Source: a virus. From it: a stretch of 43,889 nucleotides of DNA. Of this stretch, positions 4,125 through 21,736 are shown piece after piece; the first letter of the stretch is position 1; each line of letters opens with the position of its first letter. The notes beneath the pieces are model-generated. The model was not told the DNA's origin. It saw only the letters and a list, made by a program, of their open reading frames with translations, and ran no database searches. Location of the stretch: the IMG/VR virus record IMGVR_UViG_3300006155_000030. One strand, given 5' to 3'. The position numbers were made by a program, and so were the translations under genes.

Positions 4125-4640
4125 CTATATATTCTTAAAACTTTTTCTTATAGCAGCCAACCTTATTGCTTCTGGTTTTACACCAAATCTTTTTGCTAAC
4201 TGTGTTGTATTATAATTCTCTCTGTGATTATCATATAAATCTCTTATAATCAAAACGTCCTCGTTTTTCAATTTTGACTTATGGCTTTCTTCTCCAGATT
4301 TAACCATGCCATGTTCTACCGCATGTATTATATTTTCTTGATTTGTACACCATTCCAAATTATCAACACAATTATTTAGGATATTTCCGTCTATATGATT
4401 CACCATTGGCTTTCCAAGCTCATTTTCAATAAACGTTTCGGCAACAGCTTTATGGACTTTGATTGTTTTCTTGTTTTTCTTTGAGCCAAAAGTACCAGAA
4501 AAAGCATAATATCCTTGTGTATTAAAAGAAAGTTTTCTTATTCTTCCGTTAGTTGCATTTTTAACTCTTCCTTTGTTGGAAATTAAGTAATAATCTCCCA
4601 AATCCTTACCTTGATAGATAAGTCTTCTCCATTCCTCCAT
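4125..4640 (-). CDS. HNH homing endonuclease (NUMOD4 + HNH_3 type)
   Basis: 171 aa. WRRL..YYLISNKGRVKN (NUMOD4-like) is followed by VNHIDGNILNNCVDNLEWCTNQENIIHA (HNH_3 motif). SD GGAGGGATTATG. A/T-rich relative to its neighbours. Confidence 0.8.
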   Translation of the reverse strand: MEEWRRLIYQGKDLGDYYLISNKGRVKNATNGRIRKLSFNTQGYYAFSGTFGSKKNKKTIKVHKAVAETFIENELGKPMVNHIDGNILNNCVDNLEWCTNQENIIHAVEHGMVKSGEESHKSKLKNEDVLIIRDLYDNHRENYNTTQLAKRFGVKPEAIRLAAIRKSFKNI

Positions 4641-7044: not shown

Positions 7045-7872
7045 TTAGCAGCTACCGCAGCCATTACAGCCGTTTCCCCAACCGCCGCCGTTGAACTGTC
7101 CGCAGCAGTTTGTCGGGAAAGTCACCTGCGCCGGGGGCTGCACGACATATGCCGGAATCGGGCAGTCGTTGCCAGTTCTGCGGATAATCTGCGCTGTGTT
7201 TGCGTCCATAGCTGCCATAAGGGTAGCGTTCTGTGCTGCCTGGCTTGCCTGAAGCTGTAACGCCTGAATCTGGGCAGCCTGCTCTGCGATTTTCTCATTC
7301 TTTGCGTCAATCTTCTCCTGGCACAAATAGTCAAGAATCGCCCTGGTGTTGCTGTTCTGGCTTTCCAGAATATCCCTGGTGCTGTTGTTCATCTGGTTAG
7401 TGATTGCACAGGTATTTGTCGCCATATTGTAATTTACGCCGTCAATCGCGCGCTGCGTCTGGCAGCAACAATCAGAAAGCTGGCTGGACAAGTTGCAGAA
7501 TCCACGCTCTACGCCGTTGAATCCCTGCATCATGCCCATCTGCGTGCTGTTAAATCCGCTGTTTACTGCGTTTGTCAGTGCGTATGTACTGTCGCAGATA
7601 CCCTGCTGAATAGCTGTAATTCCACTCTGCAGATTGTTGAGGGCGAGTCCCTCGTTGATGTCTGCTCTTGTTGCCAATCCCTGCAAACCTGCGCCGTTTG
7701 CTCCACCGCCGAAGCCACCGCCCCAGCCACCGAAGCCGCCCCAGCCGAACATACCGAAGATAAGGAAAAGGATAATCCATGCTCCCCAATCTCCGCCCCA
7801 GCCACCGTTGTTGTTATTCCCGGTTCCGGCCGGCTCTACATTCATAGTAATAGGTACTCCTGATTCCATCAT
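7045..7872 (-). CDS. Gly/Trp-rich membrane-anchored, Cys-rich protein
   Basis: 275 aa with SD AAAGGAGTAAGAAACATG. GGWGGDWGAWIILFLIFGMFGWGGFGGWGGGFGGG forms a TM-like segment. Then come a Q/N/A-rich helical region with scattered Cys (incl. CCC) and the C-terminus NCCGQFNGGGWGNGCNGCGSC. Confidence 0.65.
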   Translation of the reverse strand: MMESGVPITMNVEPAGTGNNNNGGWGGDWGAWIILFLIFGMFGWGGFGGWGGGFGGGANGAGLQGLATRADINEGLALNNLQSGITAIQQGICDSTYALTNAVNSGFNSTQMGMMQGFNGVERGFCNLSSQLSDCCCQTQRAIDGVNYNMATNTCAITNQMNNSTRDILESQNSNTRAILDYLCQEKIDAKNEKIAEQAAQIQALQLQASQAAQNATLMAAMDANTAQIIRRTGNDCPIPAYVVQPPAQVTFPTNCCGQFNGGGWGNGCNGCGSC

Positions 7873-12733: not shown

Positions 12734-13450
12734 CTATCCAAATGCACGCTCCACGCCAAAATCAAAAACTGTAAGCTGCGCCCTATGCTCCTGCAGTCTT
12801 TTATTTGCCAAATCGTAATAATATCTGTCCTTTTCAAAGCCGACATAATCTATTCCGTATTCCTCATAGGCTATTAAGCTACTGGCAGAACCAACATGAG
12901 TATCAAGGACTTTCCAGCCTTTTTCTATGTATTTCTGTGCTATCCACCGATAGAGATTGACCGGCTTCTGCGTTGGGTGTATACGCTTCTCATTCAGTTT
13001 TTTATTACCTTGCTGAATATGCCCTTCCTCTATGGATTTTCCCTGCATCATGCCATTCCACATATACCTAAATAGCCGTACAGAATCGTGCATACTGCAG
13101 TAAGCAATCTCACAGTCTGAAAAACTGCTGTCGCCGTTGCATTTATCCCATACAATACGGCCAGAACCAAAAGGATAATCAAAGTAGTTGCATCCCCATA
13201 TAATCTGATGTTTTGAAACTCTGGACAGTTCTTCAAAATATGTTTTATCTGGAACACTCCACTCGTCAGACGGTTTATAATGTCTCTGTACTCCGATAGG
13301 GCTTACTGTCCGGCCATAATAATTTCGTTTTTCTGGCCCGCTAAAATACGGAGGATCAACCACCGCAATATCAAAATACTTGTCCGGGAACTGCGGCAAA
13401 TGTTCCATGCAATCCCCGCAAATAAAGCTGTTCATTTCAACCATATCCAT
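12734..13450 (-). CDS. DNA methyltransferase (beta-class N6-adenine or N4-cytosine)
   Basis: VVDPPYFSG (motif IV) precedes HPTQKP and LDTHVGSASS (motif I), which is the beta-class order. Start at ATG 13450 after SD AGGAAAAGGGG. Confidence 0.85.
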   Translation of the reverse strand: MDMVEMNSFICGDCMEHLPQFPDKYFDIAVVDPPYFSGPEKRNYYGRTVSPIGVQRHYKPSDEWSVPDKTYFEELSRVSKHQIIWGCNYFDYPFGSGRIVWDKCNGDSSFSDCEIAYCSMHDSVRLFRYMWNGMMQGKSIEEGHIQQGNKKLNEKRIHPTQKPVNLYRWIAQKYIEKGWKVLDTHVGSASSLIAYEEYGIDYVGFEKDRYYYDLANKRLQEHRAQLTVFDFGVERAFG

Positions 13451-13475
13451 ACCCCTTTTCCTAACCATTTATTAT

Positions 13476-14162: not shown

Positions 14163-15611
14163 CTATTCCTCCCCAAACAATCCCTCTTTCGGCTCATTCT
14201 CGCTCTTAGCTTCTGCCGCTACTGCCTTTGCTTCTTCCTCGCTCATTCCCTCAAACTTGACATAATACAGCCAAAGAGGGTATTTACCAAGCGTCACATA
14301 CTGCCAATGCCTTGCCCTGTCCTCTTCCCAGTTGTATGTTATATCGCCAAAATCATAATTGACTTCATACACTCCAACAGGTGCAAGGTTGTATATATCT
14401 GCATACTTATCCAGCGCATAGATAAGTCCGTCCGTAGCCGACTGGAAGCTGTCCCGTATCTGCTTTATGTACTGTATAGTCTCCCGGTCATCCGCTTCTA
14501 CCTGCGTGGCGGTAACGTGCCCTGTCCTGCCATTCAACACAAATTGCCCCGTGCTATACCCACACTTCACGCCGACAAGGTTCAAAAAGTGGTCTATTCC
14601 GCTTAATCTGTCCGCTGTCTGTAATGCAGGGTTTACTTCGTGGTATTCTTCCCCGGTAGTGCTGCCGGGCAATATACGAACGTGCCGGGGTAATGCTTTC
14701 CCGGTCTTATCCACCGCACCACCGGGAGCGAACCGGCTACGCACCGGCCGGCCGGGTTCGTCAATCAGCATATCCCCCAGGAACGTAATTTTCTGACTAT
14801 CGAATATTTCATCTTCTAAGCGTGTCCACGCAATATCCAGAGATTTCATCTCCTTTTGAGCGTTGGAGAAAATAGAAACGCCAAGAGGACTGCTCATATC
14901 AATATTATTAGACAGCGGCATTTTGAAAATGGAGAAAAGCGGCTGTTCTATATTCTGATAAGCAATATCTTCCTGCAGGTTCGCCCATACCGTCTCTTTT
15001 ATGCTGCACTCCTGCCCGATACCATTCGCCCCGGTTGCCTTGTATGTCTTGTTGGTGATCCGGAATATCCGCACATCTTCCGACACATCTTCAAACCGCT
15101 GCCACTCTAACCGGGTATAATACCACTTATCCCCCGGCTCATGGTAATGGTCGAAGAATATTCCGCCATCAATCTTCCCATCCGTGGCGTGTGTCGGGCA
15201 AAAATCCCACGGCATGACATAATCTATGCCCTCACCATTTGGCTTTAAGATGATATGCCCAAACGCACACGCTTTCTCACATTCCTCATTCTTCATCCGT
15301 GCAATATAACTTCTCATAAAGCCATTGATCCAGTCCGCTCTTGCTGAACCCTCTACCGTGATTCCAAGTGCAAGCGTGGTAAGCCTTGCGGTCTCGTTGC
15401 ACAGCTTCTTTGCAAAGTTAAAGGATTCAATGTCAATATTCCCTTTATCGTCTGGCAGTGTCCAGTCTGGCTTGCCCTGGTAGATATTCACCCAATCCGT
15501 CAGTGCCGCTTTCATCACGTCGCTTTCGATTGTCTCAACCCCGAATTTGTCCTGCGCTTCTTTCTGCCACAAACTGTCCCACCACCTTTTTATTGTTTGA
15601 ATTATTCCCAT
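14163..15611 (-). CDS. portal protein
   Basis: 482-aa ORF overlapping the TerL stop (shared nt 15611). Size and position are canonical for SPP1-gp6-type portals. Confidence 0.85.
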   Translation of the reverse strand: MGIIQTIKRWWDSLWQKEAQDKFGVETIESDVMKAALTDWVNIYQGKPDWTLPDDKGNIDIESFNFAKKLCNETARLTTLALGITVEGSARADWINGFMRSYIARMKNEECEKACAFGHIILKPNGEGIDYVMPWDFCPTHATDGKIDGGIFFDHYHEPGDKWYYTRLEWQRFEDVSEDVRIFRITNKTYKATGANGIGQECSIKETVWANLQEDIAYQNIEQPLFSIFKMPLSNNIDMSSPLGVSIFSNAQKEMKSLDIAWTRLEDEIFDSQKITFLGDMLIDEPGRPVRSRFAPGGAVDKTGKALPRHVRILPGSTTGEEYHEVNPALQTADRLSGIDHFLNLVGVKCGYSTGQFVLNGRTGHVTATQVEADDRETIQYIKQIRDSFQSATDGLIYALDKYADIYNLAPVGVYEVNYDFGDITYNWEEDRARHWQYVTLGKYPLWLYYVKFEGMSEEEAKAVAAEAKSENEPKEGLFGEE

Positions 15612-16885
15612 TACGCACTATTCCCCCTACTTAATGCCATAGGACTGATTGCATACCGTGTCGCATCAATCCAGTGGTTGTTTTTATCGGGGTATGCCTG
15701 TATGACTTCCCCGTTTGCATCGACTTCCAACTCATACTCTATAAACTCTTTATACAGTCTCGGCGTTCTGCGTGGGTCTATAACGTGCTTTCGGCACTGC
15801 AACCACTCCATTGTATATTTCACGGAGCCGCCCCACTGGCTCATGCGTCCTACCTCTGCCGCCCTTGCCGGAAGTCCTTTATCCCTAAAATCAACCGTAC
15901 TTTCGTTTTCGTCTGCTCCGCAGATAATTTGGTAATCGTCATATCCTTTTTCCTTAATCTGTGCCGCCATGTCTGCCACACGGATTTTACAGCCACCCAT
16001 TTCATCAAGATAATACAGCGTTTCTTTGTTCCTGTTGTACCCAAGTCTGACAAAAGCTTTCGGGTCGGGATACCAACCCCAATCCTGCCCTTGATAGATT
16101 CGCTCCATATTGGAGATTTCTTCGTCTGTGATTTCTCGTATCTCAATAAATTCAAATACGGTCGTTCCAAGTCCGACAGGAATACCTAAATACTCATGTT
16201 GATAGGCTTTTATATTGGTTTCTTTTAGGTGTTCCGCATCATCTATAAATTGCTGTCCTAGCCAATCGCGGGGGACTGTCGTATAGTCCGATTTATGTCG
16301 CAGTGCGTCCGCTCGCGGCTCATTTACATACTGATTTGCCCAGTTTGCATTTGTGATAGGCGGGTTGAAACTCTTAAACACCACAAACTTACTGCCACCA
16401 CGGAGTACCGACTGCTGTACGGTTCGGATTTCCTCAATCCCGGCAAACTCGTCCAATTCCTCAAACCAGAGATACTTAAAATATCCATGCGATACCTTTA
16501 TGGACTTCGTTTTCTTTGCTTTATCTAGTCCACGGAATAATATCTTTTGCCCTGTCGGCTTATAAACAAATGAAAGAGGGCTGACCTTTGCCTCCCACAA
16601 GTCAGTTGCCCCCAGTGCGTCTATACCCCACTGTATCTGCTCATATACGGATTCTCGGAGCGTGACCGCATATTTACGGAATATAACTGCATTTGCCAAC
16701 GGGTCTTGCATCATGCCAAGAGGTATCTCCACGCCGATAAATGATGATTTCGTACTACCCCTACCGCCGTAAAGGTCATAGTATATATGCTTGCCCTCTT
16801 GTATATCTCTATGAACATAATAAAATGCAGGGGCAATCAGTTCAGTTAATTTTACCGTCGTCTGTTCTTGGTATATCATCGACAA
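15611..16885 (-). CDS. terL: terminase large subunit (PBSX/Terminase_3 type)
   Basis: 424 aa with Walker A YGGRGSTKSSF near the N-terminus and a C-terminal nuclease region (..GADENEST.., ..NNHWIDATRY..). It follows TerS. Confidence 0.9.
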   Translation of the reverse strand: MSMIYQEQTTVKLTELIAPAFYYVHRDIQEGKHIYYDLYGGRGSTKSSFIGVEIPLGMMQDPLANAVIFRKYAVTLRESVYEQIQWGIDALGATDLWEAKVSPLSFVYKPTGQKILFRGLDKAKKTKSIKVSHGYFKYLWFEELDEFAGIEEIRTVQQSVLRGGSKFVVFKSFNPPITNANWANQYVNEPRADALRHKSDYTTVPRDWLGQQFIDDAEHLKETNIKAYQHEYLGIPVGLGTTVFEFIEIREITDEEISNMERIYQGQDWGWYPDPKAFVRLGYNRNKETLYYLDEMGGCKIRVADMAAQIKEKGYDDYQIICGADENESTVDFRDKGLPARAAEVGRMSQWGGSVKYTMEWLQCRKHVIDPRRTPRLYKEFIEYELEVDANGEVIQAYPDKNNHWIDATRYAISPMALSRGNSA

Positions 16886-17201
16886 TTGTTATAGCCTCCT
16901 GCGCCTTGATATCAATATTTTCTTTTTGGTCAAGGTATTGTTTTCCAAGCCATATCGCCATATTTGCATTTTTTTCAGCAAGCCTAAACTGGCTCCGGCG
17001 TAGACTTATTCGCCCCATTACAGCTTTTTCCTTATAAATGTCCGAAAAAGTCTTTTTGTAAGTCCTTTTACACCATGAATTAAGAGTGTCTTCGCAGCAC
17101 CCAAAGCAAGAACAGATTTCTTTTTCAGTACATTGTATACCACACAACTTTTCAAACATATTTTTATCTATTTCAATTTTAGGCCTCCCTGTTCTCGCCA
17201 T
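16842..17201 (-). CDS. terS: terminase small subunit
   Basis: 119 aa. MARTGRPKIEID..LCGIQCTEKEI..DTLNSW (HTH) followed by SLRRSQFRLAEKNANMAIWLGKQYLDQKE matches the small-terminase pattern common in Firmicute phages. Confidence 0.75.
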   Translation of the reverse strand: MARTGRPKIEIDKNMFEKLCGIQCTEKEICSCFGCCEDTLNSWCKRTYKKTFSDIYKEKAVMGRISLRRSQFRLAEKNANMAIWLGKQYLDQKENIDIKAQEAITIVDDIPRTDDGKIN

Positions 17202-17213
17202 TGTGCATCACCT

Positions 17214-17672
17214 CTAATTCAAAAATTCAAATATTTCAAACATCGCTCTTGCTTTATCTATTTCTTTGTTTCTCAGTAATTTCCTAAAAGCAATCATCAT
17301 TTCAATAGTTTCATAGTCTACAAATTGCGTTGCATTTGCTGACTTCCACCACCCTTCTACTCTTGGCAGATATTTGTTTATCCCCCACGTTGCTTTTACT
17401 TTGTTGTAATATCTCCACGTCTCGTAAAGTGCTATTAAATGGGCTTCAAACGCTTCCACTTCAGAACGGTTTTCACATTCAAAATACTGGATTTCCCAAT
17501 TTTTTCCGATGCACCATTCATCACGATAAGCATGATCCATTATTCGCTTTTCTAAATCTGATTTGTATACAATACCGATATATTTTATTATCCGATCTTC
17601 TGTGTCTATGTATCTGTATACGCATGGTTTTGTGTTGTTTATTTTACCACGTCTTGTATTTATCCTTGCCAT
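17214..17672 (-). CDS. GIY-YIG-like nuclease-fold protein
   Basis: Start at ATG 17672 (MARINTRRGK...), 2 nt after the radical-SAM stop. Contains CVYRYID..IKYIGIV (GIY-YIG-like), then R and E residues (..RSEVEAFEAHLI..). The track ORF's 65-aa N-terminal extension overlaps the upstream gene. Confidence 0.5.
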   Translation of the reverse strand: MARINTRRGKINNTKPCVYRYIDTEDRIIKYIGIVYKSDLEKRIMDHAYRDEWCIGKNWEIQYFECENRSEVEAFEAHLIALYETWRYYNKVKATWGINKYLPRVEGWWKSANATQFVDYETIEMMIAFRKLLRNKEIDKARAMFEIFEFLN

Positions 17673-17673
17673 A

Positions 17674-19002
17674 TCACCACATCTTTTCCACCTTTGCATA
17701 GGTTCTGATATTTCTTGTCGGGAGAGTATCGGGCGTAAACTCCCCAAACAGCGTATCAACGTCAAAATACTTCTCAAGCGTTGCCTGTTTGACTTTCGCG
17801 CTTGCAGACTGGAATTTGCTGCTGCAAGCCAGCTTAACAATATTATCCGCATCTTTTTCAGTTCCACGCCATATAATAGCCGATTGTATCACCGTGCTAA
17901 GGCTCTCCGTTGCCATGCTCTCAACTGCCCAAATAGAATTGCCCTGATAGAAGATATTTCCCTTATATCTCCCATGCCCTAATTTCTTTGCGATCATTCC
18001 ACGGTAATTCATGTATGACATAGGTTTGCAGGCTAAAGGAGTTGCCGGCATTGCCCTAAACGGTGTGCTATGCAACAATATGCTGGTCTGTTTTTGCGTC
18101 TTTGACAATCCGCTGTCAACAATCCGTATATCCTCGACAAATTCCTCCCAATCCTCAAAGGTTTCAGTCGGATAGCCGATAATGTTGTAAAATTTGACCT
18201 GATGCGGTTTCTCGCACTTTGCCAAACGCTCCAAAAACTCACGCAGCATATCCCTTGTGATTTTCTTGTTGACCATGAAACGGATGCGCTCTGACAAGCC
18301 GTCAATAGCGGTAGTCCGCAACTTAACAAGGTCAACATCAATCCCGTTGTGCATATCAATCATGGCTCGCTCACGGTCAACACCGCCGTTCCACAATCCA
18401 GAATAGTTAAATTCCTCCTGCGCCGCCTGTTTCCTGTGCCATGTATAACCGCAGAATAGGCATTTGTGATTGCAGCCAATAACATCTTCGTGATATGTTT
18501 GCCCGTTATCAAGCTGTATGTCATATGGATATATGCTATCAACCTGATTGATATAATACAGCTTATCCATGCTGAAGCTTTTGGAAGATACTATATGCTC
18601 GTCAACGCACTCCTCGTTGTCCAGTATGGCTTGCGCCATCTTATCTTGTATGCCCTCCGCTCTGCCAAGCACAAAGTAATCAACGTATTGCAAGAATGGG
18701 CAGGGATTTAACACCCCTTGCCCTCCCACGCATACTTTGTAATCGCCTTTCTGCCATGTGACACGTTCCGCAATAAATTCCCACCAATCGCAATCAGATG
18801 TAACGCTGTACATTACCATGTCAAATTTATGCACCGTTGCCGCACTGCAATAGTCAATGTTGGAAAATCCGGCACGCTTCAGTATGTCGCATACAACCGC
18901 CATGCCAGCGTTAAGGCGCACATTATAACATTCTTTGCTATATGTCTGCTTTGCGTACTTATTCAGCACATATATACCGATTTTAAGATTATCCTTATCC
19001 AT
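17674..19002 (-). CDS. radical SAM enzyme with N-terminal B12-binding-like domain (class B-like)
   Basis: 442 aa with CNHKCLFC (C177/C181/C184 = CxxxCxxC) after a ~170-aa Rossmann-like N-terminal region. This architecture resembles B12-binding-domain radical SAM proteins. Confidence 0.7.
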   Translation of the reverse strand: MDKDNLKIGIYVLNKYAKQTYSKECYNVRLNAGMAVVCDILKRAGFSNIDYCSAATVHKFDMVMYSVTSDCDWWEFIAERVTWQKGDYKVCVGGQGVLNPCPFLQYVDYFVLGRAEGIQDKMAQAILDNEECVDEHIVSSKSFSMDKLYYINQVDSIYPYDIQLDNGQTYHEDVIGCNHKCLFCGYTWHRKQAAQEEFNYSGLWNGGVDRERAMIDMHNGIDVDLVKLRTTAIDGLSERIRFMVNKKITRDMLREFLERLAKCEKPHQVKFYNIIGYPTETFEDWEEFVEDIRIVDSGLSKTQKQTSILLHSTPFRAMPATPLACKPMSYMNYRGMIAKKLGHGRYKGNIFYQGNSIWAVESMATESLSTVIQSAIIWRGTEKDADNIVKLACSSKFQSASAKVKQATLEKYFDVDTLFGEFTPDTLPTRNIRTYAKVEKMW

Positions 19003-19010
19003 GTTTCACC

Positions 19011-19484
19011 TCAAATCTGAAACTCAAAACCGCACTTAGGGCAGTGGCATGTCTTCATTTCTTTTTCCGGCTCCGGCTTGCTATCGTCCAAATCAAGCGC
19101 TAAATCGTCCTCCGGCATATCCATTTCTGCAAATCCAAAATCCGACATATCGAGGTCAAATATCCCGTCCAGCTCGTCAGCAAGCAAATCCATATCCCAT
19201 TGAGAGGATTCGCCCACCTTGTTATCCACCAGGCGGAACGCTCTAATCTGTTCTTCTGTCAAATCATCAGCCACGATGCAGGGCACGGTTTCCATTTTCA
19301 GTTTGACTGCTGCTTTATATCTCGTATGCCCTGCAACAATCACGCCGTTGCTATCAATCACAATCGGAACTTTAAAGCCAAATTGCGATATGCTATTAGC
19401 CACATAATCCACGGATTTATCGTTTTTACGCGGATTGTTTTCATATGGTGTTAAATCATTTATTTTTTTCTCTATTATCTGCAT
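19011..19484 (-). CDS. ParB N-terminal (ParB/Srx nuclease-like) domain protein with C-terminal zinc ribbon
   Basis: 157 aa. Contains YENNPRKN and GHTRYKAA motifs of ParBc, an acidic linker DLDMSDFGF, then CHCPKCG. SD AAAGGTGATAATATG. Confidence 0.8.
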   Translation of the reverse strand: MQIIEKKINDLTPYENNPRKNDKSVDYVANSISQFGFKVPIVIDSNGVIVAGHTRYKAAVKLKMETVPCIVADDLTEEQIRAFRLVDNKVGESSQWDMDLLADELDGIFDLDMSDFGFAEMDMPEDDLALDLDDSKPEPEKEMKTCHCPKCGFEFQI

Positions 19485-19623
19485 ATTATCACCTTTGCTT
19501 TCTGCTTTGGAGTTAGCTTATCCATTCAACCACCGCCAATAATGAAAATTTATTCCTTTTCTTTAACTATCTCAAAATATTCTTCCAACTAATCAAACAC
19601 AAAACCCAGATTATAAGAACTAT

Positions 19624-20496
19624 TTAGATGCTAGATTTATGATTTTGGCATTCCATACCACATTTATTTTCTGTCGCCTTTATCATAATTTCGTCTATTG
19701 GCATTGAGAGGTAATCGTATTGATTGGAGCAGTTCGCATATGCTGCATCAGAACATCCGAAAGTCATGCCATCACATCGAATAAATAAAGTGCCGTACCA
19801 TGAGTTACACGCGAAATGAGGAGAATACCAAACATGATTATTGATATTTGGGTCATAACTTTTTTCAAACGCAAAATTTTTATAAAACATTGGTATTCTA
19901 AGAGCTGTTTTTCCCTTTGTTAATTTCGGTATTAAACGTTTGCAAAAATCTCTGTATTCATTATCTTCCATAATTAAATCATATCGCATTTTTGCTGCAC
20001 CCTGCGGGTAAATCGGATTAACAATTACAGAAATTCCATCATTTGATAAATCTATTATTTCACGCATTGCATCTTCGATGTTATTTTTGGAAACATTTTC
20101 GACTATTTCAATTTCGCAATTTCCAATAAATCCGCTCAAATCTGGTAAATTAGTTCCTGGATCGTGCGAAATTCTAAATCTATTGAAATTGTGAGATAGT
20201 ATATCTGATTTATATTTTTGCAGATTTATACCATTACTGAGAAAAGCTAACCCGTTCGGCATCTTATTCCAGGTGGAACTCAAATAATCCAACAGCAAAA
20301 ACATTTCTTCGTCATACAATGGTTCTTTTCCGAAAAAATATAACAAAAGGTTATGAGGTTCTGGAAAATCTTTTTTTATTTTATCTATAATTTTACATTT
20401 CTGTTCAAATGACAATTCCCTATACCTACAATCACCTACAAAACAATATTCACAATTTTTATTGCATTTATCGTTAAATCCCCATGATATTATCAT
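19624..20496 (-). CDS. radical SAM enzyme with C-terminal Cys-rich (SPASM/twitch-like) region
   Basis: 290 aa with CNKNCEYC at residues 11-18 and C-terminal ..ACNSWYGTLFIRCDGMTFGCSDAAYANC..CGMECQNH. Markedly A/T-rich DNA. First gene after the late promoter at 20549-20582. Confidence 0.75.
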   Translation of the reverse strand: MIISWGFNDKCNKNCEYCFVGDCRYRELSFEQKCKIIDKIKKDFPEPHNLLLYFFGKEPLYDEEMFLLLDYLSSTWNKMPNGLAFLSNGINLQKYKSDILSHNFNRFRISHDPGTNLPDLSGFIGNCEIEIVENVSKNNIEDAMREIIDLSNDGISVIVNPIYPQGAAKMRYDLIMEDNEYRDFCKRLIPKLTKGKTALRIPMFYKNFAFEKSYDPNINNHVWYSPHFACNSWYGTLFIRCDGMTFGCSDAAYANCSNQYDYLSMPIDEIMIKATENKCGMECQNHKSSI

Positions 20497-20583: not shown

Positions 20584-20766
20584 TTATCTCTGCACCAAAT
20601 TCAAATCCTCGTCAACCTCATTGATTTTGATACAGAAAAGCCTTTCGTCAATCTTGTAATAAAATTCATTGGACGTTTCTGCGTCAATATAGCCGATATT
20701 CTTATGTTGCATCTGCTCCAATGGCTTTCTAATCTCGCCCATCAGTAATGTTTCTAAATGGCTCAT
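20584..20766 (-). CDS. hypothetical protein (60 aa)
   Basis: ORF overlapping the stop of 20763..21215 by 4 nt. Its 3' end abuts the late promoter box. Confidence 0.4.
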   Translation of the reverse strand: MSHLETLLMGEIRKPLEQMQHKNIGYIDAETSNEFYYKIDERLFCIKINEVDEDLNLVQR

Positions 20767-21215
20767 TTCCCTATCCTCCTTAACTCCTTATCAAACAAAC
20801 TGTAAAAATATCTCCTAATCCCATAAAAATCCGTCCGGCAGTACGGTATCCGCTCCATTTCTTTCAACTCCCATTTTACCCTGAGCGCGTCATAGGACTT
20901 GTTTTGAGTGACAGACAGTAAAATGTACTCTGCAATCGTTTCATTGGCTGTATGAGCCGCCTGTGAAGCGAGAGAGGCATATCTGCCAGACCGTATGTAC
21001 TCTGTCAACTGCCTATACCGCTCTTTGGTGATTCCGTAATGCTGCCATGAGTTCCGGGGGACTGACTGATACTGCGGATTGGCTTGCTGCTCGAAAATGC
21101 TAAGCTGCCTAAATCCGCTATATCTCTCGCATGATTCTTTCTTCCCCGTGCAGCCCTCACATTTGCATACATTCAAGCATGTCCGGCATAGGCAGGTGTG
21201 GCATTTTCTGCGCAT
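20763..21215 (-). CDS. Cys-rich protein, candidate late-gene regulator
   Basis: 150 aa. N-terminus MRRKCHTCLCRTCLNVCKCEGCTGKKESC, then a helical region (ITKERYRQLTEYIRSGRY..). It occupies the position usually held by late activators just before the packaging genes. Function is inferred from position only. Confidence 0.45.
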   Translation of the reverse strand: MRRKCHTCLCRTCLNVCKCEGCTGKKESCERYSGFRQLSIFEQQANPQYQSVPRNSWQHYGITKERYRQLTEYIRSGRYASLASQAAHTANETIAEYILLSVTQNKSYDALRVKWELKEMERIPYCRTDFYGIRRYFYSLFDKELRRIGK

Positions 21216-21219
21216 GGTA

Positions 21220-21405
21220 TCACCGCCTAACTCTTCTTCTCAATTCCGCTTCCAGCACCTTTAACTTGGTCTTTACTCCGCTCTTTCCATCAAGATTAGA
21301 AATTGTCGCTTGAATTTCTTCGTTTGTTGCCCTTTTTAATGCACTTTTAAAATTACAATCACCAGATGGCGTTGTCATAAGCCAGCTAATATTATTGCTC
21401 ATCAT
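21220..21405 (-). CDS. hypothetical protein (61 aa)
   Basis: Start at ATG 21405 (MMSNNISWLM...) with SD AAAGGAGATAGGGGAAATG. Confidence 0.4.
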   Translation of the reverse strand: MMSNNISWLMTTPSGDCNFKSALKRATNEEIQATISNLDGKSGVKTKLKVLEAELRRRVRR

Positions 21406-21736
21406 TTCCCCTATCTCCTTTCCTTTTCCTGCACCACTGCGGGCAGTTTGATACTTTCTGTTCAATCAGGCGCATTTTGTCAACACACAATCTTCTATAT
21501 CCGTCCTGCTTCTCCTTTTCCACTAATATACAGTTTTCGCATTCATCACAGTGCGGTAGGTTTGCTTTTACTCTCACTCTGTAATCTCTCTGTTTCTGCT
21601 GATACATTTCTGGATTTATTGCCCATCGCCTACGCTTAAGCATGGCGGCAATATCTTTGTTTTCCTTGTTGCAATCTTCTCTTGTACAAGATACACAATT
21701 CGGATATTGGCAATCATCAGAAATCAATTTGATCAC
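21392..21736 (-). CDS. Cys-rich (multi CxxC) protein
   Basis: 114 aa with DDCQYPNCVSCTREDC and HCDECENC motifs. Confidence 0.5.
   Translation of the reverse strand: MIKLISDDCQYPNCVSCTREDCNKENKDIAAMLKRRRWAINPEMYQQKQRDYRVRVKANLPHCDECENCILVEKEKQDGYRRLCVDKMRLIEQKVSNCPQWCRKRKGDRGNDEQ

Follow-up and report, generated by a model that had tools for sequence, protein, structure and literature searches.

The DNA analyzed in this study (the window) is a stretch of 43,889 nucleotides (nt) from the viral record IMGVR_UViG_3300006155_000030, in which three consecutive open reading frames (ORFs) between positions 17,674 and 20,496 encode, in the order of transcription, a radical S-adenosylmethionine (SAM) protein of 290 amino acids (aa), a 157-aa helper protein with a ParB/Srx-type nucleoside triphosphatase (NTPase) fold (ParB_N), and a radical SAM enzyme of 442 aa, all on the minus strand. 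A comparison of homologous loci indicates that the conserved unit consists of two of these genes, those for the ParB_N protein and the 442-aa enzyme, and not of the trio. The pair is interpreted as a two-component, ParB-assisted, post-replicative DNA modification cassette with a new radical SAM family as its putative catalytic subunit, a reading to which a probability of roughly 55% is assigned. The three ORFs had been singled out in an earlier reading of the sequence (the original prediction) as one candidate DNA or protein modification module, and both the ORFs and the motifs quoted for them proved real (table 1): CNKNCEYC in the 290-aa protein, YENNPRKN, GHTR and an acidic linker in the ParB_N protein, and CNHKCLFC after a Rossmann-like region in the 442-aa protein.

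The gene linkage was observed directly. In IMG/VR, 78 loci with relatives of the 442-aa protein at 25–85% identity were found, and 63 of them have at least 500 nt of upstream sequence. An ORF with a CPxCG tail lies immediately 5' of the 442-aa homologue in 61 of these 63 loci, and the two genes overlap in 54 of the 61 (positions estimated from tblastn alignments). In the window, the ParB stop codon is followed within an 8-nt gap by the ribosome-binding site and then the start of the 442-aa gene (TGA-GGTGAAAC-ATG). One of the two exceptions (L053) still contains the ParB gene, with an inserted ORF between the two. The tailed ORF is likewise found 5' of the 442-aa homologue in 12 out of 13 loci from genome assemblies. 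The linkage in 61 of 63 loci provides comparative evidence that the pair works together. The pair precedes differing terminases (Terminase_4 with TerL_ATPase, or Terminase_3) and is once found between the large terminase subunit gene (TerL) and the portal gene, and this occurrence before different terminase types is the behavior expected of a mobile two-gene cassette. In relatives including the closest relative phage (L238), the terminase genes follow directly 3' of the cassette, with no other biosynthetic gene.

Two kinds of alteration were seen within the cassette. In L053 and L055 (4288-4788), a 166-aa ORF separates the ParB gene from the radical SAM gene, and the junction sequence is duplicated (the peptide PKPSAAPSAGTNSPWSE occurs twice), a footprint resembling that of a mobile element. 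In three further loci (L108, L114, and L121), the tailed ParB gene is intact but the 442-aa gene behind it is truncated, frameshifted or reduced to a remnant, which suggests that the radical SAM enzyme is sometimes lost from the cassette.

The domain make-up of the 442-aa protein was established from profiles and a structural model. A Rossmann-like region of about 135–170 aa with a strand-helix pattern and a GGxG motif precedes the radical SAM cluster motif, and the protein passes the Pfam Radical_SAM profile (PF04055) marginally (30.7 against a cut-off of 29.5 bits). Among 13 family members, nine match Radical_SAM_N2 (PF19864), for which the window protein itself scores below the cut-off, and eight match the B12-binding profile PF02310 weakly. 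The cysteines C177, C181, and C184 are invariant in 25 homologues and also in homologues with as little as 24% identity. These CxxxCxxC residues are the sole cysteines conserved across the whole family, which implies a single cluster and rules out chemistry of the methylthiotransferase type. A metal site shared by the ParB tail and the enzyme was also considered and found to be unsupported, with no extra Cys or His conserved in the enzyme family. All NCBIfam subfamilies compared with the 442-aa protein scored below their cut-offs (TIGR04014, MgmA, 18.3/360; TIGR03960, 33.6/462; TIGR04013, 23.7/251). Neither of the two radical SAM proteins was placed in a named subfamily by NCBIfam, with scores at least ten-fold under the curated cut-offs, and QueE was not matched by the 290-aa protein.

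A sequence-profile search of the Protein Data Bank (PDB) with the 442-aa family returned only matches at chance level, and a search by fold was therefore needed. The AlphaFold2 model (predicted local distance difference test, pLDDT, 79; predicted template modelling score, pTM, 0.81) matches radical SAM structures. The Foldseek ranking in the PDB is led by MgmA (E = 4e-7), followed by MiaB and MtaB (E ~1e-4) and then OxsB, with template modelling (TM) scores of ~0.2–0.4; among viral structures, the one clear relative is an unannotated gut phage protein. In the 442-aa protein, as in MgmA (PDB 9ccb), OxsB, and MiaB/MtaB, a Rossmann-like domain comes first and is followed by the radical SAM barrel and a C-terminal domain, but the relationship is very distant (TM ~0.35, 12–15% identity, and NCBIfam scores of 18–34 bits against cut-offs of 250–460). 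To our knowledge, none of these enzymes acts on DNA or requires a ParB partner. A methylthiotransferase identity (MiaB/RimO/MtaB) was rejected: unlike these enzymes, the 442-aa protein has neither auxiliary-cluster cysteines nor a TRAM domain, and its C-terminal domain is helical.

The 442-aa family comprises 614 clusters at E <= 0.001, the best 120 of which are 414–469 aa long and 64–95% identical. It is restricted to phages, is known from metagenomes only and matches no named subfamily. A scan of 185,579 species genomes, conducted with alignment A1 (the divergent alignment A2 was too variable for scanning), identified 13 loci with homologues, all in metagenome-assembled genomes, mostly on phage-sized contigs and mostly from the Clostridia/Oscillospirales and the Planctomycetes. 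Searches of the GenBank phages with the DNA of the region and with both radical SAM proteins gave zero matches, indicating that no cultured phage there carries either enzyme.

The 157-aa helper protein is built from an N-terminal nucleotide-binding domain, with YENNPRKN at residues 14–21, an acidic linker and a C-terminal knuckle tail, and ends in CHCPKCGFEFQI. Its GHTR sequence corresponds to the GxxR motif, the nucleotide-phosphate-binding motif of the ParB fold (PMC10164549, PMC12704722). The protein is not matched as a canonical partition ParB: TIGR00180 scores 41.3 against a cut-off of 58.45 and covers residues 3–89 only, and the linker and tail end the protein 60 residues past the matched region. 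NCBIfam profiles detected neither a helix-turn-helix DNA-binding domain nor a canonical ParB C-terminal domain, no parA-like gene was found among the neighboring window ORFs examined, and the match obtained with the defense-system search tool PADLOC, to a model of type II methyltransferases, was confined to the N-terminal part of that model. In 30 distinct tails located 5' of 442-aa homologues, C-P-K-C-G is invariant and is followed by F or H, any residue and an aromatic residue.

Some of the tailed ORFs directly 5' of 442-aa homologues are mini-partners of 65–74 aa that consist of the acidic linker and the CPKCG tail and have no ParB_N domain. In one lineage (L045, L047, L066, and L152), in which the mini-partner is 70–73 aa long, its tail is identical and the N-terminal part has diverged, and in the L045 group the cassette is located between TerL and the portal gene; a further mini-partner (L153) could be a deletion remnant. 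As the mini-partners drop the ParB_N domain yet keep both other parts, the linker and tail are the minimal element retained with the enzyme.

The enzymes that accompany related ParB proteins elsewhere were identified in two ways. In a reverse scan, the peptide CPKCGFxFE was used as a DNA pattern against viral contigs and gave 63 matches: 44 were followed by a 442-aa homologue, two lay at contig ends, four belonged to unrelated zinc-ribbon proteins, and 13 to tailed ParBs without a 442-aa homologue. The gene next to these 13 encodes a C5 cytosine DNA methylase (3e-39, 9e-45), a D12 N6-adenine methylase, a DpdA-type enzyme (with QueD, QueE, and QueC next in line) or a terminase. A survey by ParB domain covered 76 loci, in 36 of which the domain is fused to another domain (N6/N4 methylase in 19, DUF4417 in six). 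A short ParB with a CPxCG tail was found in 16, followed by phrog_887 genes (annotated as queuine tRNA-ribosyltransferase, DpdA-type), C5 methylases or members of the 442-aa family. The remaining 24 encode short untailed ParBs, with N6/N4 methylases (five loci), Mom (three), TET-associated glycosyltransferases (two), a PAPS-reductase-like protein (one) and ABC/AAA-like ATPases (seven) as partners. Based on this survey, the slot after such a ParB mostly holds enzymes that modify DNA at the polymer level. The original proposal that ParB_N and a B12-type radical SAM enzyme might work together in a DNA methyltransferase slot is supported by the linkage of the two genes in 61 of 63 loci and by the DNA modifiers of proven classes that follow ParBs of this kind, or are fused to them, elsewhere.

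Several of these partner arrangements recur. The phrog_887 DpdA-type genes commonly stand behind a short ParB_N with a CPHCGE or CPKCGF knuckle (L224:3501-4828, L188, L193, L217, L226, and L136), and the knuckle-tailed ParB_N located 5' of them may be the phage counterpart of the bacterial ATPase DpdB. In L097 (8204-8671, minus strand, and the next gene), two knuckle-tailed ParBs in tandem (CCPKCGFEFEV and ECPCCGFRFN) precede a C5 DNA methylase, a layout that recurs in at least seven related contigs. In L168 (3992-4669) and six similar loci, an untailed ParB that ends in "...GYECR..L" is followed by a 225-aa ABC/AAA-like ATPase (phrog_11143).

Assistance of DNA-modifying enzymes by ParB-fold proteins has published precedents. 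DpdA depends on DpdB, an ATPase of the ParB superfamily, for the insertion of preQ0 into DNA (Gedara et al., NAR 2023, PMC10164549). The likeness to the window lies in the pairing of a ParB-superfamily NTPase with a base-modifying enzyme (putative in the window), and tailed ParBs of the window subfamily stand directly 5' of phage DpdA-type genes. Unlike the window ParB, DpdB is a larger ATPase with a DGQQR motif and an SspE-like C-terminal domain, the chemistry of DpdA is base exchange and not radical, and the window contains no DpdA, QueC or QueD. The second precedent is a thymine dioxygenase that needs a phage ParB without a DNA-binding domain, largely its cognate one, for activity on double-stranded DNA; both the nucleotide-binding and the C-terminal domain of this ParB are necessary (PMC13229309). 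In this 5mYOX176/ParB176 system (O'Toole et al., PNAS 2026, PMC13229309), as in the window, a short ParB without a DNA-binding domain adjoins the gene of the modifying enzyme (putative in the window) near the terminase. The enzyme paired with ParB176 is an Fe(II)/2-oxoglutarate dioxygenase and not a radical SAM enzyme, and ParBs of the 5mYOX type keep a helical C-terminal dimerization domain, whereas a single CxxC knuckle closes the window ParB.

A survey of the ParB-CTPase fold describes phage fusions to methylases and DUF4417 and the binding of CTP, ATP or GTP (PMC12704722). The original prediction had pointed to ParB_N domains with an acidic linker that are often fused to a DNA methyltransferase beside the terminase, and such fusions were found. 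In cultured phages, the domain and linker of the fusions are 55–72% identical to those of the window ParB_N, and the linker runs into the methylase without a tail. The fusions of phrog_498 (Lactobacillus phage CR191 and Streptococcus Javan prophages) share with the window the homologous ParB_N, the acidic linker and the pre-terminase position; they carry an N6/N4 SAM methylase in the same polypeptide and no knuckle tail, whereas the window encodes a separate radical SAM protein. A radical SAM partner is mentioned in none of these publications on ParB proteins (PMC10164549, PMC13229309, and PMC12704722), and literature searches on the combination yielded nothing relevant. The original statement that the genes match no characterized pathway thus stands for the radical SAM partner, while ParB-assisted DNA modification as such had already been published (PMC10164549, PMC13229309).

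According to the preferred reading, the cassette would be expressed just ahead of the packaging genes, and the 442-aa enzyme would modify phage DNA that has been replicated but not yet packaged. Having no DNA-binding domain of its own, the ParB-fold protein may bind NTP and serve the enzyme as an activator or clamp, loading it onto double-stranded DNA or keeping it there, a role modelled by analogy on those documented for DpdB towards DpdA and for ParB176 towards the thymine dioxygenase. The CPKCG tail would take the place of the canonical ParB C-terminal dimerization domain, either with two CxxC motifs paired around one metal ion as a zinc-hook-like dimerizer or through direct docking of the enzyme. 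A one-step SAM-dependent, possibly cobalamin-dependent, methylation at a base carbon is the most economical chemistry, given that the cassette contains no further enzymes and that the enzyme is predicted to have one [4Fe-4S] cluster and a cobalamin-type Rossmann domain. A more specific proposal, that the 442-aa family represents phage-specific, DNA-acting radical SAM enzymes that are loaded by a ParB clamp and install a carbon-linked mark beyond the reach of SAM methylases (a C-methylated purine or another radical adduct), is considered tentative and rather doubtful.

Several points weigh against DNA modification by the pair. DNA as the substrate is inferred from the nature of the alternative partners and from the literature precedents, which are DNA modifiers, and no result obtained here shows it. 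With a pI of 6.3, the 442-aa protein is not basic, and it lacks a recognizable DNA-binding domain; the nearest solved structures act on protein (MgmA) or tRNA (MiaB), at a TM score of only ~0.35; and cobalamin binding is not readable from a sequence whose family matches the B12-binding profile with a best E value of 1e-4. The ParB NTPase domain appears to be dispensable in one or two lineages, in which the mini-partners consist of linker and tail alone. The ABC/AAA-like ATPases that partner seven of the 24 untailed ParBs are not obviously DNA-modifying, and the phage already encodes a conventional N6/N4 methylase. Finally, mutations of the NTP-binding residues had little effect in the thymine dioxygenase system (PMC13229309), which leaves the clamp model itself unproven.

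Among the alternatives, an action of the pair on free nucleotides or another small molecule was judged unlikely. The pair might then change the deoxynucleotide pool ahead of replication or interfere with nucleotide-based immunity of the host, with ParB_N as the NTP-binding subunit, in line with the binding of CTP, ATP or GTP by the ParB fold (PMC12704722) and with the action of the radical SAM enzymes viperin and MoaA on nucleoside triphosphates. However, the 442-aa enzyme resembles the macromolecule-modifying group with a Rossmann domain and a radical SAM domain, and not viperin or MoaA, and the identifiable partners of this ParB subfamily are mostly polymer-level DNA modifiers. With PADLOC, the 442-aa protein gave only a marginal match to a candidate family (PDC-M51A, E = 0.0018, 15 bits) and none to a characterized defense system.

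A protein or peptide substrate is similarly improbable. It could be the CPKCGFxF tail of the ParB partner, modified in the manner of a ribosomally synthesized and post-translationally modified peptide (RiPP), or a packaging or virion protein. MgmA, the best structural match, belongs to the B12 radical SAM enzymes and has a protein side chain as its methylation target, and the tail is invariant, adjoins the enzyme gene and is retained when ParB_N is lost. Related tails are nevertheless found on ParBs that accompany C5 methylases, a D12 methylase or DpdA-type enzymes, with no radical SAM gene present, which indicates that the ParB tail is independent of the 442-aa enzyme. The enzyme itself contains no RiPP recognition element, SPASM domain or auxiliary cluster. 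The RiPP-maturase pair that the original prediction offered as its alternative is not supported either: no leader or recognition element is evident, the only candidate peptide is the ParB tail that non-radical-SAM partners also have, and the two radical SAM genes do not co-occur.

The modification of host or phage RNA (tRNA or rRNA) by the 442-aa enzyme, as performed by MiaB, MtaB or Cfr, is very unlikely. The Foldseek matches to MiaB and MtaB and weak NCBIfam matches to the MiaB/RimO family agree with such a function, but the three N-terminal methylthiotransferase cysteines and the TRAM domain are absent, known ParB-fold partners serve DNA enzymes, and the gene occupies a DNA modification slot.

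The 290-aa protein is best described as an orphan radical SAM protein. Its Pfam matches are to Fer4_12 (23.6 against a cut-off of 22) and, below the cut-off, to Radical_SAM (22.5 bits). CNKNCEYC is located at residues 11–18. Nearer the C-terminus, the cysteines C230, C248, C256, and C283 are invariant in eight close relatives; in distant relatives, conservation is at least 90% for C230, C248, and C283. The Pfam SPASM profile is matched by two out of 35 relatives and not by the window protein. The family consists of eight close clusters, and an exhaustive profile search returned 119 representatives (31 at E <= 1e-10), most of them of about 290 aa. The best PDB match of the family profile is MoaA (4e-21), followed by SPASM/twitch maturases and viperins, and PADLOC reports a weak match to pVip (1.9e-8). 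The AlphaFold2 model is poor (pLDDT 57), and its Foldseek matches (MoaA and NifB) are cited only as agreeing with the sequence profile. Compared with the MoaA, viperin and twitch enzymes, the protein thus shows profile likeness and C-terminal cysteines, yet no named family reaches its cut-off. Nine of the 35 relatives (P0150, P0152, P0155, and six others; 450–570 aa) carry an N-terminal QueC-like PP-loop domain. In view of these fusions a QueE identity was considered and rejected, as no QueE was found among the NCBIfam matches or among 39 PDB profile matches.

The neighborhoods of the 290-aa gene separate it from the pair. The gene is missing from all 78 IMG/VR loci initially retrieved with the 442-aa family and from the 13 genome-assembly loci, and homologues occur without a ParB or 442-aa gene in L004, L005, and L241–L243. 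The survey of gene neighborhoods therefore supports the proposed trio with respect to the ParB_N/442-aa pair (61 of 63 loci) and contradicts it with respect to the 290-aa gene, which is also absent from the closest relative phage and stands alone elsewhere. The comparison indicates that the 290-aa gene is an independently inserted accessory unrelated to the pair. A single pathway of all three genes, in which a MoaA/viperin-like 290-aa enzyme makes a precursor that the second enzyme installs, can claim that the three genes adjoin one another on one strand, both in the window phage and in near-identical copies, and that the QueC fusions of distant relatives hint at nucleobase chemistry, but it is the most improbable of the alternatives, as the two radical SAM genes never occur together in the 78 fetched or the genome-assembly loci, L238 lacks the 290-aa gene and the 290-aa family has neither ParB nor 442-aa gene in four other contexts. 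It is no more than a reasonable guess that the 290-aa protein acts on a nucleotide-type substrate. In L241 (5836-6486) and L242, the homologue is followed by a 134-aa ORF and by an 80-aa protein with a weak match to CYTH (triphosphate tunnel), a possible hint of nucleotide-related chemistry.

The window is a temperate phage of a Gram-positive host, with genes for an integrase, for a CI-like repressor and for a GH25 lysin that includes a peptidoglycan-binding domain. In the NCBI assembly GCA_949472125.1 it is present as a prophage, on a contig of 146 kb. Contrary to the original statement, the cassette is not directly upstream of the terminase: the genes 3' of the 442-aa gene encode, in transcription order, a GIY-YIG-like protein, the small terminase subunit (TerS), TerL and the portal protein, and only 2 nt separate the 442-aa stop codon from the start of the GIY-YIG-like ORF. 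In L238, which has a 442-aa protein of 95% identity, TerS follows directly and both the GIY-YIG-like ORF and the 290-aa gene are absent. Based on this absence, the GIY-YIG-like ORF is probably a homing endonuclease insertion. A second homing-endonuclease-like gene (NUMOD4/HNH_3, 4125-4640, minus strand) is located among the structural genes, and L238 has a different methylase (PF02384) at the position that matches the N6/N4 methylase of the window. Three Cys-rich proteins are encoded on the minus strand (20763-21215, 150 aa, nine Cys; 21392-21736, 114 aa, ten Cys; 7045-7872, 275 aa, 13 Cys), the last with a Gly/Trp-rich N-terminus. They belong to no convincing family, with weak matches only (DUF5651 and phrog_11237). 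A scan of the window for promoter and terminator motifs gave matches no commoner than in shuffled sequence, and the original statement that the three genes come after the first late promoter was not confirmed.

Table 1. Positions of the features discussed in the text (in the window unless a locus is named)
Feature	Position	Strand	Basis or remark
ParB_N (ParB/Srx NTPase-fold) helper, 157 aa	19011-19484	-	Pfam PF02195, 36 bits (cut-off 26.3); phrog_620, 2e-56
GHTR (GxxR motif), residues 52-55	19320-19331	-	G52 and R55 invariant, H53 nearly so (alignment A4)
Acidic linker, residues 96-143, net charge -17	19056-19199	-	Also present in ParB-methyltransferase fusions
Knuckle tail CPKCGFEFQI, residues 148-157, single CxxC	19014-19043	-	Tail comparison among homologous loci
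Junction of the ParB_N and 442-aa genes	18998-19013	-	ParB stop, then ribosome-binding site and start of 442-aa gene
442-aa radical SAM enzyme: N-terminal Rossmann (B12-binding-like), radical SAM barrel, C-terminal helical domain	17674-19002	-	Profiles, AlphaFold2, Foldseek
CNHKCLFC (C177, C181, C184), radical SAM [4Fe-4S] cluster site	18451-18474	-	All three Cys invariant (alignments A1, A2)
290-aa orphan radical SAM protein, MoaA/viperin/twitch type, outside the module	19624-20496	-	Profile and neighborhood comparison
GIY-YIG-like ORF, 152 aa, outside the module	17214-17672	-	Pfam GIY-YIG, 20.9 bits, below cut-off; also a gene-caller ORF of 152 aa
Terminase small subunit TerS	16842-17201	-	phrog_309
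Terminase large subunit TerL	15611-16885	-	TerS/TerL block 15611-17201: phrog_309 and Pfam Terminase_3, 1.2e-32
Conventional N6/N4 DNA methylase, DPPY motif	12734-13468	-	Within head-morphogenesis block, portal-proximal genes to minor capsid protein 2
Mini-partner, L045	4786-5004		Linker and tail only
Mini-partner, L047	2296-2508		Linker and tail only
Mini-partner, L066			Linker and tail only
Mini-partner, L152	534-755		Linker and tail only
Mini-partner, L153	3787-3984		Linker and tail only

Modification of their DNA is one of the main ways in which phages evade restriction and CRISPR, and it has also supplied biotechnology with enzymes. ParB-fold helpers of DNA-modifying enzymes have been recognized only recently, with DpdB in 2023 and the ParB-dependent dioxygenases in 2025–2026. 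To this emerging kind of ParB-assisted DNA modification, which is known, the cassette adds an unreported class of partner, a large radical SAM family (hundreds of clusters) from uncultured phages, mostly of anaerobes, and with it a realistic chance of new chemistry. If DNA is the substrate, the product could lie outside the known modification repertoire. A DNA-acting, ParB-loaded enzyme would be the first radical SAM enzyme known to depend on ParB, and its product a natural DNA modification of new chemistry. With only two genes, the pair would also lend itself to studies of the way in which a ParB fold that lacks a DNA-binding domain can activate an enzyme on DNA.

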